Origin: Promethearchaeota archaeon
GTDB taxonomy: Archaea > Asgardarchaeota > Lokiarchaeia > Sigyniarchaeales > SOKP01
Reading direction: 5' to 3'
NCBI GenBank assembly: GCA_011364925.1
Contig: RDOA01000035.1
Location: 1-38,344 of the forward strand
Length of the DNA stretch: 38,344 nt
The stretch's first letter is position 1. Each line of letters opens with the position of its first letter. The notes under the pieces were generated by a model. It was not told the origin of the DNA and ran no database searches. It saw only the letters and a program-made list of their open reading frames with translations. Position numbers and translations under genes: made by a program. This document shows positions 3,687 through 19,063 of this stretch, in pieces.

Positions 3687-4526
3687 ATGTATAAGAAAGA
3701 ATTAGGAATCATTGGAACTGGAAAAATTGGTTCTGCCTTATTAAGAAGGTTGATTTCGACTAATACAATTGATCGAAGTAAAATAATTATCTTTGATATC
3801 GACGAAGATAAACGGAATAAGTTGTCCGAGGAATATAAAGTCGAGATCGCTCTAAACAATAAAGAATTAGTAAGATCCTCTCAATATGTTTTAATAGCTA
3901 TAATCCCCCAAGTTATAGATTCTGTCTTAAAGGAAATTGGCTCACACATCACAAACGAACAAGTATTAATATCGATTGCTGCTGGAGTTTCCTTTAAACA
4001 CATTAATAATTTTATAAATCCTGATGTGGGATTAATAAGAATAATGACAAATACTCCAGCGCTTATTGGTGCTGCAGCTACAGCAATAGCTCATAATGAA
4101 TACATCAAAGATTTTCAAATAGAATATGTTAAACGATTATTTAGTGCCGTAGGAATGGTTGTCGATTTAGAAGAAAGGCATTTGGATGCGGTAACCGGTT
4201 TATCTGGGAGTGGCCCCGCATACATCTTCATTATAATTGAAGCACTAGCAGATGGGGGTGTTAAAATGGGTCTACCTAGGAGCATCGCTTTAAAACTAGC
4301 GGCTCAAACCCTTTTAGGCTCAGCAAAACTTCTGTTAGAAACGGATATACACCCCGCAGCACTGAAAGATATGGTCGCCACCCCCGGAGGAACGACTATA
4401 ACCGCGATACACGAACTTGAGTCAGCAAAATTAAGAGCAACTCTAATTAGAGCAGTGGAAGCTGCGACATTAAAATCAAAATCATTAAATTCGGCTAAAA
4501 ATAACCATAATTCGGGTGATTTTTAA
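3687..4526 (+). CDS. proC: Pyrroline-5-carboxylate reductase
   Basis: GxGxxG, ISIAAG, TGLSGSGPAY and VATPGGTT motifs. Confidence 0.95.
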   Translation: MYKKELGIIGTGKIGSALLRRLISTNTIDRSKIIIFDIDEDKRNKLSEEYKVEIALNNKELVRSSQYVLIAIIPQVIDSVLKEIGSHITNEQVLISIAAGVSFKHINNFINPDVGLIRIMTNTPALIGAAATAIAHNEYIKDFQIEYVKRLFSAVGMVVDLEERHLDAVTGLSGSGPAYIFIIIEALADGGVKMGLPRSIALKLAAQTLLGSAKLLLETDIHPAALKDMVATPGGTTITAIHELESAKLRATLIRAVEAATLKSKSLNSAKNNHNSGDF

Positions 4527-4677
4527 TTTATTATTATTACTCTTTTAAATTTTTAGGGGTTTAAATAAGCGTTGTATAAGCATAAATTGTTTACATATAA
4601 AAGTTGAATAATAAAAAATTAAGTTATAGCAAAATAATGCTCTAATTTCTTACATTTTACCAATAAAGTGAGAAAAT

Positions 4678-4707
4678 ATGCCAGGACATAATCAAATTTT
4701 TCCATAA
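4678..4707 (+). CDS. Micropeptide copy 1, MPGHNQIFP (9 aa; most divergent copy)
   Basis: ATG CCA GGA CAT AAT CAA ATT TTT CCA TAA. AAAGTGA lies 6 nt upstream; same length and M-P-G...hydrophobic-P-stop pattern as three other intergenic ORFs. Confidence 0.65.
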   Translation: MPGHNQIFP

Positions 4708-4751
4708 ATGATGATCGCAAGTTGACCATCATATATTTTCTTTTCTTTTTT
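4708..4751 (+). terminator. Hairpin plus T tract after micropeptide copy 1
   Basis: ATGATGATC (4708-4716) pairs with GACCATCAT (4724-4732), 8 of 9 pairs, followed by TTTTCTTTTCTTTTTT. Confidence 0.55.
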
Positions 4752-4881
4752 CATTGAACTTTATAAGCTGATATTTCTTAGTTCTTCCGATTTAGTTGAT
4801 GTTTAAATAAATAGGCGTTAAATTCTGCTAAAATATACAATTTAAAGAATAATTTTTTTATATATTGTCGATTTCCTTTAA

Positions 4882-6099
4882 ATGTTTAAAATGGTAAACA
4901 TTACCAAGTTTGGAGAAGAATATTTGCTTTTAGCACTTCGGATTGGTAAACATATTAAAGGGTATGTTGATTTTTATATCGGTCCAAGAATTTTACAAGA
5001 TCGTGTTAATATTGAGGGCCTAGCTTCACCAAACAGACTTTTAACAGACTGTAAGAATCTTCAAAACAATTTGTTCGTTCAAGGCTATGACAAAAACCGT
5101 GAAAGATATTTAGAAAAAATGTTAATTGCTATGTCAACAACAATAGAATCATTAATCCATACAAATATACCTATTGAGGAGCAATTCTTAAGGTTGTATG
5201 ATGTTGTTTTACACCCAGTTAACGAGGTTGAGTTGGAGAATTTAAAAGAAGAAGTAGACGAAGCATATAAAGGTCAAGGAAGTCTTGAAGAAAGATTCGA
5301 AAGGTTAAGGTTAAAACGAAAAGTTCCAAAAGACAAGGTCTTCACATTTTTTAAAAGAGCTCTTAATATAACAGAAAATCGAACTGAAGAATTGTTTATT
5401 GATCTATTACCTAAAAATCAACAAATTTCGTTAGAGCTTACAAAAGATGAGCGTGAAGACAATATAAAATGGACATGTTATGAATGGTATTTAGGCAAAT
5501 GTCGTAGTCGATTAGTGGTTAATCCGAAATTTGATTTGTACTGGACAAATTTATTAACATTGTGCGCTCATGAAGGATACCCAGGACATCATACAGAATT
5601 TTCTTTAAAAGAATTAAAACTGTATCACGACTTAAATCAATTCGAACATTCAGTTTTACTCATAAATTCTCCTAAATTAATAATAAGTGAAGGAATAGCG
5701 GATCTTGCCGTAAATGTGCTTTTTTCTTATCGAGATCAAGTAGAAATTGGATTGAACGAATTTAGTCTAGATTTATTTAATGATGATCCTCTTGAAGTTA
5801 TGATTGCACAATATCGGTTAAAGCATAAAGTTTCAAGTTTTTGGTACAATTTTGCTTATCATGCTCTCATTGATAATTACACCGATGAGGAATTAATTAG
5901 CTATGGTAAATATTACGAGATTTTTAGTGAGAATACCCTAAGAAATCAAATAAAAAGATTAAATGATCCTGTATATTCAGTAAATTCTTTTACATATAAC
6001 CTAGGGATGAATATTATAAAAAAGAGGTATGGAGAGTTCCCTTCAGCCAAAAATTTTCGAACTCTATTGATTAATCCAATATTACCATCTGACTTGTAA
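4882..6099 (+). CDS. DUF885-like HExxH zinc metallopeptidase (short form, no obvious signal peptide)
   Basis: AHEGYPGHH motif, downstream SEGIA (third-ligand Glu) and C-terminal TYNLG motif, matching the DUF885 pattern. Confidence 0.75.
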   Translation: MFKMVNITKFGEEYLLLALRIGKHIKGYVDFYIGPRILQDRVNIEGLASPNRLLTDCKNLQNNLFVQGYDKNRERYLEKMLIAMSTTIESLIHTNIPIEEQFLRLYDVVLHPVNEVELENLKEEVDEAYKGQGSLEERFERLRLKRKVPKDKVFTFFKRALNITENRTEELFIDLLPKNQQISLELTKDEREDNIKWTCYEWYLGKCRSRLVVNPKFDLYWTNLLTLCAHEGYPGHHTEFSLKELKLYHDLNQFEHSVLLINSPKLIISEGIADLAVNVLFSYRDQVEIGLNEFSLDLFNDDPLEVMIAQYRLKHKVSSFWYNFAYHALIDNYTDEELISYGKYYEIFSENTLRNQIKRLNDPVYSVNSFTYNLGMNIIKKRYGEFPSAKNFRTLLINPILPSDL

Positions 6100-6306
6100 T
6101 AGATATATCAAAATGCTAATTTCAGTTTTACCACTGTTTTGCCAAACTTATATTTCATTTTCATTGATCTCATACTATTTTTTCGTATTTTAAATAATTA
6201 ATTTAAATTATAAAATTGAGTGAAGAAAAAATAGGGAAGTAAAATCGAAAATCGTATAAATTAATTAGATCTCTTCATAGTTTTAAAATCTAAAGGAGTG
6301 ATTAAA

Positions 6307-6336
6307 TTGCCTGGTGACGATGGTACATTACCATAA
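6307..6336 (+). CDS. Micropeptide copy 2, MPGDDGTLP (9 aa, TTG start)
   Basis: TTG CCT GGT GAC GAT GGT ACA TTA CCA TAA. AAAGGAGTGA lies 5 nt upstream; TATA-like GTATAAAT about 50 nt upstream. Confidence 0.75.
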   Translation: MPGDDGTLP

Positions 6337-6339
6337 TTC

Positions 6340-6403
6340 GGTGTTATAAGAGTGATTTAGATTGACACTCTTATTTATACGCCTCTTATTTTTCATTTTT
6401 TTT
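6340..6403 (+). terminator. Hairpin plus T tract after micropeptide copy 2
   Basis: Perfect 9-bp stem ATAAGAGTG (6346-6354)/CACTCTTAT (6366-6374), outer GGTGT/ACGCC, then a T tract. Confidence 0.65.
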
Positions 6404-6542
6404 ATAAAAAGTCATAATCATTAATTTCCAACTATTTCTAGGAGTTTAAATATTGAATTTGATACATATGATGAGTGTAGAAAGAATATAATACTTCTAT
6501 TCTATATTCAGTTAGTTTCAAGATTTAAAAAGAGTGATAAAG

Positions 6543-6572
6543 ATGCCTGGTGATACGGGTACTATACCTTAA
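6543..6572 (+). CDS. Micropeptide copy 3, MPGDTGTIP (9 aa)
   Basis: ATG CCT GGT GAT ACG GGT ACT ATA CCT TAA. AGAGTGA lies 5 nt upstream; BRE/TATA-like GAAAGAATATAATA about 55 nt upstream. Confidence 0.78.
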   Translation: MPGDTGTIP

Positions 6573-6581
6573 ATTAGCACC

Positions 6582-6644
6582 GCTTAGTAGAGCAGTTCAC
6601 GTGAATGCTCATTTTAAGCTTATTCTTTACTTTTTTCTTTTTTT
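6582..6644 (+). terminator. Hairpin plus T tract after micropeptide copy 3
   Basis: GAGCA (6590-6594)/TGCTC (6606-6610) enclosing palindrome TTCACGTGAA, outer GCTTA/TAAGC, then a T tract. It might also serve the convergent pantoate kinase gene. Confidence 0.6.
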
Positions 6645-6662
6645 ATAAGAAACAATATACTA

Positions 6663-7628
6663 TTACGACTTTACATTAAACTTGATAGTCTGGTTATCTT
6701 TAATTTTTAGATCAAATGTCTTAATTTCAGGCTTGTATGTGTTATAGACTTCAAATACTTTCTTTTCCTTTCCCTTTTTACAGAATACATAAACAGAGCG
6801 ACCTAACTGATTCATACTAGCACCTATAATATCCAGTTTGTATAATTCAATTAACAAATCCTCAATTTTATCCAAATGCAAAATTTCTAATATTTGTGTA
6901 TCTTGTACAAACTTTTTTGACACTTTAATAAAATTCTTGTAATTAGGTTTTAATAATAAACTATTCAAAGCAAATTTACCTGCCTGTTTTATCTTTGAAC
7001 TGAGGTATTCATCTGATAATATCGATTTGGTTTTTATTGGTCCAAAAGAACCACAAATAACTAAGAGATCCTCTGGACTCTTTAACCGTTCCTGCTTACA
7101 AGGATAACCAGGTTCCTTCAAAACACATAAACCACCTCCTAATTGCCCACAAACTGTCCCTAAACCTGTCTTATTCACAACCTCAGCAATATGAGCAATC
7201 CTTCCACATTCTAAATTCGTTAACTTTAAGTTCAATAATTTATTCAGTCCAAAAATCGTTCCTAATGCACCTGAACCACTAGCGCCATACCCACAACCAA
7301 CGGGAAGGTCAAAAAGGTGTTCTATTTTTACATTTATCGGGTGATCTATCAGCTTATTAACATAATTGAATATAAAATAAGTTGTCTCTGCTTTCTTATC
7401 CAATTTTTCTTCGTTGATATAAATAGTACACTGACTTTCCTCGCCCATTTCAAGTTTTTCATAGGATACTGCTGTTGTTCCTACTCCACTTACGTTAAAT
7501 CCAGCACCTCGAGAGCCGATCTTTTCCGGATTTGTAATAGGAACCCCATTTTCTTTATCTACGATTTCAAAAAAACCCGAAATGCGATGGGGAACTTCAA
7601 CGATAATTTTATTCTTACTGTTTACCAT
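6663..7628 (-). CDS. Pantoate kinase (GHMP kinase family), archaeal CoA pathway
   Basis: PHRISGFF, GSRGAG, LPVGCGYGASGSGAL, AHIAEV..KTGLG and ASMNQLG motifs. Confidence 0.88.
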   Translation of the reverse strand: MVNSKNKIIVEVPHRISGFFEIVDKENGVPITNPEKIGSRGAGFNVSGVGTTAVSYEKLEMGEESQCTIYINEEKLDKKAETTYFIFNYVNKLIDHPINVKIEHLFDLPVGCGYGASGSGALGTIFGLNKLLNLKLTNLECGRIAHIAEVVNKTGLGTVCGQLGGGLCVLKEPGYPCKQERLKSPEDLLVICGSFGPIKTKSILSDEYLSSKIKQAGKFALNSLLLKPNYKNFIKVSKKFVQDTQILEILHLDKIEDLLIELYKLDIIGASMNQLGRSVYVFCKKGKEKKVFEVYNTYKPEIKTFDLKIKDNQTIKFNVKS

Positions 7629-8814: not shown

Positions 8815-8973
8815 GCAGGGATAACCAAGTTGGTCAACGGTGCCGGACTTTTGTGAGAAAAATCTCGCAACACGGATTCAAGATCAATATTCAATTTATC
8901 CGTTGATTGACGGAGTTTCTGATGGGATATCCGGTGAGGTAGCTCTACGTGGGTTCAAATCCCACTCCCTGTA
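8815..8973 (+). tRNA. tRNA-Leu(CAA) with two introns: about 8849-8877 (position 32/33) and 8883-8928 (37/38)
   Basis: Acceptor GCAGGGA/TCCCTGT with A73, anticodon stem CCGGA/TCCGG, long variable arm, T arm GTGGG-TTCAAAT-CCCAC. The loop CTCAAGA is reconstituted through micro-exon TCAAG (8878-8882); intron TGGG (8923-8926) pairs with CTCA as a BHB central helix. Confidence 0.85.
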
Positions 8974-19033: not shown

Positions 19034-19063
19034 ATGCCTGGTGAACTAGGAACATTTCCTTAA
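19034..19063 (+). CDS. Micropeptide copy 4, MPGELGTFP (9 aa)
   Basis: ATG CCT GGT GAA CTA GGA ACA TTT CCT TAA. AGGAGTGA lies 5 nt upstream; TTTAAATA about 60 nt upstream; T-rich tract at about 19087-19102. Confidence 0.78.
   Translation: MPGELGTFP

Follow-up and report, generated by a model that had tools for sequence, protein, structure and literature searches.

The subject of this report is a small gene cassette in a 38,344-nt stretch of DNA from an Asgard archaeon (Promethearchaeota archaeon; contig RDOA01000035.1 of assembly GCA_011364925.1, positions 1 to 38,344, forward strand; hereafter the window), in which the gene for a putative zinc peptidase is accompanied by three open reading frames (ORFs) of nine codons each. 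An original prediction, made from the letters alone, had described three such micropeptide genes around a metallopeptidase gene with the motif HEGYPGHH, and all four genes lie exactly where it had located them, all on the + strand. Its description of the slot between two housekeeping genes was likewise borne out. The upstream flank is proC (pyrroline-5-carboxylate reductase; 3687..4526, + strand), which matches Pfam P5CR_dimer (4e-41) and reaches 283.6 bits against the TIGR00112 cut-off of 196.75, and the downstream flank is a convergent gene for a probable pantoate kinase of the GHMP kinase type (6663..7628, - strand), assigned by Pfam GHMP_kinases_N and by an NCBIfam pantoate kinase match (E 1.5e-33) that lies below the equivalog cut-off.

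Layout of the cassette

The peptidase gene was called at 4882..6099 (+ strand, 405 aa) and is described here as a compact DUF885-fold zinc peptidase on the basis of a sub-threshold Pfam match, an AlphaFold2 (AF2) model and Foldseek comparisons. The HEGYPGHH motif (residues 230-237; 5569..5592, + strand) is invariant among homologues and is presumed to be the zinc-binding and catalytic motif, while an invariant glutamate, E270 (5689..5691, + strand), is a candidate third zinc ligand by reference to the gluzincin fold.

Copy 1 of the nonapeptide genes (4678..4707, + strand; MPGHNQIFP-TAA) is preceded at 5 nt by AGTGAG (4667..4672, + strand), a Shine-Dalgarno (SD)-like site read from the sequence that recurs throughout the family. 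A hairpin (4708-4732) and a T-rich tract (4735-4752) on the same strand form a terminator-like structure behind it; the hairpin is weaker by RNAfold (-6.1 kcal/mol, z -1.2) than those of copies 2 and 3. The end of copy 1 is separated from the ATG at 4882 by 174 nt, the distance given by the original prediction. This interval contains a TATA-like T7ATATATT (4853..4866, + strand; about 25-38 nt before the peptidase start), in a segment that is also conserved beside the peptidase in the closest relative found (locus L158), and it is the probable promoter of the peptidase itself, from which a leaderless or nearly leaderless mRNA would arise.

A T-tract follows the peptidase ORF at about 6175-6191. 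Beyond it lies a TATA-like box, TATAAATTAA (6255..6264, + strand), 43-52 nt 5' of copy 2; A/T-rich boxes occur at a similar distance in other units, and this one may be the copy 2 unit's own promoter. Copy 2 (6307..6336, + strand) uses a TTG start, reads (M)PGDDGTLP-TAA, carries the SD-like site GGAGTGAT (6295..6302, + strand) on its 5' side and is followed by a hairpin (6340-6383, + strand; -15.0 kcal/mol, z -3.7) and a T-tract (6385-6403). Copy 3 (6543..6572, + strand; MPGDTGTIP-TAA) is arranged in the same manner, with the SD-like GAGTGAT at 6532..6538 (+ strand), a hairpin at 6582-6619 (+ strand; -13.2 kcal/mol, z -2.2) and a T-tract at 6620-6646 that abuts the 3' end of the convergent kinase gene.

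A fourth family member, MPGELGTFP (19034..19063, + strand), has no adjoining peptidase. It lies 12.9 kb from the peptidase and 165 nt 5' of the next gene, and is preceded by the SD-like AGGAGTGA; no significant hairpin was detected behind it (minimum free energy -1.5, z -0.2).

The nonapeptide family and its coupling to the peptidase

The family was defined by the strict pattern [ATG]TG-CCN-GGN-N15-CCN-TAA, i.e. MPG-x5-P-TAA. This pattern matches four times in the window, as compared with no match in 100 shuffles, and 11 times in the whole assembly (3.9 Mb, 33% G+C). About 60 related loci of the same genus were gathered, giving 84 distinct units. An SD-like site (GGAGTGA, AGTGAG or GAGGT) always lies 5-8 nt 5' of the start, the hairpin begins a median of 2 nt past the stop (mean z against shuffles -3.0 over 83 units) and T content reaches 62% over the 24 nt following the hairpin. 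The units fall into three flank types, A, B and C, whose upstream and downstream flanks are unrelated between types, and the exact nine-codon frame is common to all three.

Conservation within the frame is structured by codon. The wobble bases of Pro2, Gly3 and Pro9 are free (at codon 9: CCA 43, CCT 18, CCC 11, CCG 4), and a relaxed search that permitted one mismatch among the eleven constrained bases found a deviation at a constrained base in four of 41 units, three of them in the stop codon (10-mers ending in PK or PY) and one with Ala for Pro2. The nine-codon length was also examined without the pattern, by enumerating every SD-preceded ORF of 4-25 codons in cassette regions; ORFs of nine codons numbered 96 (62 of them MPG..P) against 24-43 at lengths 8 and 10. 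Because variation is found at wobble positions and hardly ever at constrained ones, the nonapeptide ORFs are likely to be translated. Among the variable residues, position 4 is mostly Q, E, H or D, position 6 mostly G, D or N, and position 7 mostly T, I or A. The units with a changed stop, in L091, L094 and L124 (TAA to AAA or TAT), are one codon longer and encode MPGESDSIPK, MPGQDGFVPY and MPGQPGTFPK; these constitute natural tests of the need for a free C-terminal Pro.

The original prediction had proposed a synteny test, in which such ORFs would flank peptidase orthologs in other Asgard genomes more often than other genes. The outcome was strongly positive: the peptide genes are distributed non-randomly with respect to this peptidase clade. 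In the genome of the window, tblastn identified five peptidase paralogs (100, 65, 57, 54 and 41% identity), four of which together account for eight of the 11 peptide ORFs, each ORF at a distance of less than 1 kb. The fifth and most divergent paralog (41%; C34:16350-16379 region, L003) is followed at about 75 nt by a nine-codon MPSGNIIPE; orthologs elsewhere (35-44% identity) lack such an ORF, the one in L013 having a convergent 11-codon MPHGPGGTVIP.

Among 151 genomes of the order, the enzyme is confined to a single family, in which two genera have it. Of the 42 genomes of the window's genus, 13 carry paralogs with at least 52% identity (49 genes in total, up to 10 per genome), and the adjacency of these paralogs to peptide genes is nearly obligate, since 45 of the 49 have a strict peptide ORF at most 1 kb downstream on the same strand. 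The four exceptions comprise a gene followed by the nine-codon MFHSGEVVP with the same SD, hairpin and T-tract, two genes at contig ends and one gene fragment. Viewed from the peptides, 63 of 88 ORFs adjoin a peptidase, 62 of these 63 on its downstream side, and two further ORFs that appeared to be orphans adjoin a peptidase fragment at a contig start. Presence and absence are also shared. All 13 genomes with the clade hold 2-18 peptide ORFs, whereas 25 of the 29 genus genomes without it hold none and the other four hold one; a control with the reversed pattern gave 0-1 per genome.

Outside the genus, sporadic single matches were found, several with in-frame stops. The exception is a genome of the sister genus, with MPGSVGTIP 121 nt behind a 47%-identical homologue; a 49% homologue in that genus has MPHTEGIVP. 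Peptide ORFs were not found beside members of the enzyme clade at 44% identity or less, and comparable micro-ORFs were not found at 57-70 bacterial homologue loci (25-31% identity; from Chloroflexota, Deinococcus, Acidobacteriota, Bacteroidota and others). A tree built from 46 enzymes recovers the peptide-linked clade as monophyletic, with peptide motifs distributed according to enzyme subclade (e.g. MPGQAGA[VI]P, MPG[QEH][ED]G[TI]GP and MPGxxDA[IVT]P).

Inspection of the immediate neighbours revealed no third gene conserved beside the cassettes. The neighbours differ by locus and include proC, a ribosomal protein gene, a short-chain dehydrogenase/reductase gene, a small GTPase gene and a glycosyltransferase gene. 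The slot between proC and the pantoate kinase gene recurs in at least eight other genomes, where it is occupied by a cassette of a different subclade; whole cassettes thus appear, from this synteny, to move or to replace each other as units. A proline-sensing link between the cassette and proC was considered and rejected, as only one cassette per genome occupies that slot and the adjacency is one of synteny. These observations give good support to a module of peptide plus enzyme, and the two components very probably work together.

One element of the original prediction did not survive the comparison, namely that the peptidase is bracketed by peptide genes. The conserved layout is a peptidase followed by one to three downstream peptide genes, and copy 1 of the window is the sole upstream unit among the 63. 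In L158, where the peptidase is 80% identical and the order is 4-HFC-P synthase, proC, peptidase and kinase, the gap between proC and the peptidase is only 38 nt and contains no upstream unit. Alignment with L158 places copy 1 in an insertion of about 330 nt (about 4504..4835, + strand) with an 18-nt direct repeat on either side (4485-4503 and 4818-4835). As a result of the insertion, the C-terminus of proC is altered and reads SAKNNHNSGDF, as compared with SAKINNFKE in L158. No second copy of the insert was found in the genome, and an origin as a miniature inverted-repeat transposable element was rejected for want of another genomic copy. The insertion illustrates how the mini-genes spread.

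Downstream of the peptidase, L158 has an additional unit, MPGNPGTLP, a copy 2 ORF identical at 30 of 30 nt and MPGDAGTVP as the ortholog of copy 3; the TTG start is retained in related PGDNGTLP units. On account of the copy 1 insertion and the unit differences with L158, peptide units appear to be gained and lost quickly. The same alignment bears on the start of the enzyme. The first ATG (4882) is missing in L158, and therefore the true start is probably ATG 4891, which aligns with the start of all paralogs and gives a protein of 402 aa.

Some members of the family occur away from peptidases. The type C branch, which includes MPGNSGICP, MPGTADATP and MPGCADATP, is distinguished by flanks of its own and by a strong, GC-rich hairpin, and always lies just upstream of an MFS_1 transporter gene and divergent from a gene that encodes about 1200 aa. 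At least eight genomes share this arrangement (the present genome at C70:45999-51528, L005, with its unit at C70:47600-47629, and L128, L132, L134, L137, L139, L140 and L142). The 1204-aa neighbour has no Pfam match, and its atlas scores (0.77 at most) are too low to use. The placement of type C is compatible with export of the peptide and fits a leader-peptide role equally well. Another member, MPGQDGIFP at C42:39368-39397 (L004), is found about 340 nt 5' of a gene for a CoaBC-like flavoprotein; the contig ends 83 nt away, so that a peptidase may be hidden just beyond it. In the window, too, the cassette adjoins a gene of the CoA pathway, that of the pantoate kinase; the shared CoA link is probably coincidental.

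Fold and motif of the enzyme

The designation DUF885-like was correct as regards the fold and incorrect as regards the profile and the motif. The match to Pfam DUF885 (PF05960) scores 22.0 bits against a threshold of 32.4 (E 1.5e-4, residues 116-244), and the motif is HEx4HH and not the HExxH of the original prediction. A weak DUF885 match is found in 30 of 76 homologues (best E 8.4e-6). No NCBIfam model matches the enzyme, profile and single-sequence searches of the PDB returned noise only, and all database homologues, of which there are at least 769, are labelled 'hypothetical protein'.

An AlphaFold2 model built from 76 homologues reached a predicted local distance difference test score (pLDDT) of 95 and a predicted template modelling score (pTM) of 0.93. 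Its best structural matches, over the whole chain, are the solved DUF885 proteins of the Peptidase_MA gluzincins: 3iuk_B (Z 22.3, root-mean-square deviation 4.2 Å, 358 residues aligned), 3u24 (19.5, 4.0 Å, 346) and 3o0y_B (19.3, 3.6 Å, 361), with Foldseek E values of 1e-6 to 1e-4; the weak Pfam match spans the motif region. The next structural tier comprises M32 carboxypeptidases (Z 13-14.5), followed by M3 oligopeptidases, angiotensin-converting enzyme (ACE) and ACE2, Dcp, neurolysin and MATCAP (Z 11-13). The likeness to M32, M3 and ACE is one of fold only, as there is no Pfam or NCBIfam match and the motif spacing differs. Characterized members of this group of folds act on short peptides, which they enclose and hold at the C-terminus.

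In the model the intact HEx4HH motif bridges two helices, running from the end of the first (221-231) into the start of the second (236-250). A comparison of 108 sequences showed no variation at H230, E231, H236, H237 and E270, which do not vary in the set of 76 either, and clade-specific residues include R146, F240, Q253, K265 and Y326. The modelled fold begins at residue 3, and therefore there is no N-terminal signal segment; lipoprotein-type N-termini occur in some bacterial homologues. The enzyme is probably a compact, cytoplasmic gluzincin of the DUF885 fold, zinc binding being presumed.

It differs from the DUF885 proteins (3IUK, 3U24, 3O0Y) in having 405 residues instead of about 550-600 and in lacking a signal segment, whereas the solved proteins are described as putative lipoproteins. 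No DUF885 protein has been reported with adjacent peptide genes, and a search of the DUF885 literature returned passing mentions only, with no functional paper and no natural substrate.

Possible roles of the nonapeptides

The association between peptides and peptidase is solid and unexpected; the mechanism outlined here is what we infer from it. The favoured explanation, which we consider slightly less than evenly probable, takes the nonapeptides to be cognate substrates of the peptidase encoded beside them. Under this explanation the module would have two parts, a probably cytoplasmic zinc peptidase of the closed, helical gluzincin fold of the DUF885/M32/M3/ACE type and a set of nine-codon genes, each expressed separately with its own SD-like site and with a hairpin and T-tract that would yield short transcripts. 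Removal of the methionine would convert M-P-G-x5-P to P-G-x5-P. The enzyme would then read the fixed length and both conserved ends, the variable middle would be the 'message', and cleavage would either mature a bioactive or signalling peptide or switch it off; destruction would amount to a quencher or immunity role. This explanation is preferred because the two-part module travels as a unit and enzyme subclades keep their own peptide types, and because conservation of the exact length and both ends with a free middle is what is expected if one protein measures both ends. Cyclization, which the original prediction had also suggested, and maturation of the type seen in ribosomally synthesized and post-translationally modified peptides were ranked low since no modifying enzyme is conserved nearby.

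Several observations weigh against the substrate explanation. The five middle codons show no synonymous excess (23 synonymous and 57 non-synonymous changes, 23.5% expected, p = 0.16), and as this dN/dS-type test was not significant, frame, length and wobble pattern were used as coding evidence instead. The middle codons may be nearly neutral, weakly constrained or diversifying, and the result would also fit a peptide whose sequence hardly matters. Paralogs and related genomes are non-independent observations, so that the counts overstate significance, and about a quarter of the family (e.g. copy 4 and the type C units) is not beside a peptidase. A C-terminal Pro blocks carboxypeptidases of the M32 type, and the peptides could equally be inhibitors. 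Neither the enzyme nor the peptides carry an export signal, and an extracellular signalling role would therefore need an exporter.

A bolder version would supply that exporter. The nonapeptides may form a leaderless, ribosomally made archaeal peptide system of diversifying signals or antibiotics, exported by the pumps of the major facilitator superfamily (MFS) that accompany type C units and each matched to a paralogous peptidase that quenches it or confers immunity; we regard this as rather unlikely. We know of no gene-encoded peptide signalling or microcin-like system established in Archaea. If the leaderless system were real, it would provide the first case of peptide-based communication or competition described from Asgard archaea, the lineage closest to eukaryotes, and would give the DUF885 fold its first physiological substrates. 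Proteins of this fold are widespread and structurally solved, and the cassettes supply the first candidate natural substrates, nine residues long and encoded beside the enzyme gene. Nine-codon genes are too short for ordinary gene calls and hence invisible to annotation, and this peptide family has about 85 members in one genus.

Alternatively, the peptides may be cognate inhibitors or regulators, the Pro-terminated nonapeptide filling the active-site chamber and restraining a potentially harmful cytoplasmic peptidase, in the manner of enzyme-immunity or toxin-antitoxin pairs; every paralog would have a matching peptide. ACE is classically inhibited by oligopeptides that end in Pro, a C-terminal Pro is not released by M32 enzymes, and the fold of the present enzyme is related to both. 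Inhibition would account equally well for the adjacency, the co-phylogeny and the co-occurrence; one to three separately expressed peptide genes with stabilizing hairpins per peptidase would provide a molar excess of peptide, and multi-copy, shuffling, fast-diverging modules recall conflict or addiction systems. However, units come and go in the arrays of close relatives without any indication that the enzyme disappears as well, some family members occur without any peptidase, and to our knowledge no gluzincin is governed by a gene-encoded inhibitor of nine residues. On balance inhibition seems improbable, as does, to a marginally greater degree, a role in cis, in which a ribosome pausing at the Pro-stop would cover the hairpin base and tune local termination or stability, the adjacency reflecting co-duplication of the gene and a 3' or regulatory element. 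The fixed length, conserved ends and near-neutral middle do resemble short arrest peptides, the hairpin begins almost directly behind the stop, and some members occupy leader positions (type C before the MFS gene, copy 1 before the peptidase and copy 4 before its next gene). Termination and stability of the mccA RNA are, moreover, governed by ribosome binding (PMC4231749). Against a role in cis, 62 of the 63 peptidase-linked units lie downstream of the enzyme, where the next element is a further unit or a convergent gene and there is nothing to regulate, and the T-tract behind the peptidase ORF together with the A/T boxes before the units suggests separate transcripts. It would also leave unexplained why one peptidase clade, and no other gene family, carries the units. 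If it were nevertheless true, Pro-stop minigenes would represent a new regulatory device for archaea.

It is very improbable that the 30-nt element is an untranslated part of a small RNA or a terminator-associated repeat with an incidental open frame. Such a view can draw on the conserved flanks and hairpins, on the lack of a synonymous excess in the middle codons and on the fact that the case for translation is built from sequence pattern. It is opposed by the retention, across three flank types, of frame, length, start, TAA and the first two bases of codons 2, 3 and 9 while the third bases vary, by the SD-like site that is always present 5-8 nt upstream, and by the rare variants, which read through the stop for a single codon, as would be expected if the frame is coding. 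Furthermore, no Rfam family matches in 4500-6700, the matches in the window being one tRNA and the large-subunit (LSU) rRNA only.

The substrate explanation may be compared with known systems. A literature search found no paper on such cassettes and nothing relevant on Asgard small proteins. In microcin C systems, mccA is a seven-codon ORF with a terminator directly after it, an arrangement that makes its short transcript abundant relative to the enzyme, and its peptide is an enzyme substrate (PMC4231749); the cassettes share the tiny ORF (nine codons here) with an immediate hairpin and T-tract. Microcin C precursors conserve their length (seven residues) and not their sequence, and the logic that explains this constancy would also explain the exact length kept here (PMC6495379). 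A branch of the nonapeptide family precedes an MFS gene. An MFS pump (MccC) and an immunity peptidase (MccF) are likewise encoded in the mcc operon. The present system differs in that no adenylating enzyme of the MccB type (ThiF/E1-like) or other modifying enzyme is conserved among the immediate neighbours inspected, the peptide genes follow that of the enzyme, a gluzincin serves as the partner and the organism is archaeal, with many paralogous cassettes per genome.

Short leaderless peptides that are encoded as such and act as signals are known from SIP/LCP with RopB (PMC10518010), and the cytoplasmic M3 oligoendopeptidase PepF, whose fold is related to that of the window enzyme, degrades a streptococcal peptide pheromone as a shut-off (PMC9173638). 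SIP/LCP peptides pair, however, with an adjacent receptor of the RRNPP type and not with a peptidase, and pepF is unlinked to the pheromone gene; no RRNPP receptor or receptor of the tetratricopeptide repeat type was found among the inspected neighbours of the peptidase cassettes. Arrest and leader peptides share the short ORF, the fixed distance from the N-terminus to the Pro-stop and the hairpin right behind it, whereas most of the present units have no downstream gene to control and stand in tandem arrays behind the enzyme gene. TnaC-type arrest peptides end in Pro-stop, and those of the Erm/Cat type are short drug-sensing leaders. By analogy, the locus appears to work most like either an mccA-type pair of minigene and enzyme or a leaderless peptide served by its own oligopeptidase, and it belongs to neither class as these are defined.

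Elsewhere in the window, the Rfam tRNA match (8815-8973) is 159 nt long, far above tRNA length, and is probably an intron-containing tRNA gene.

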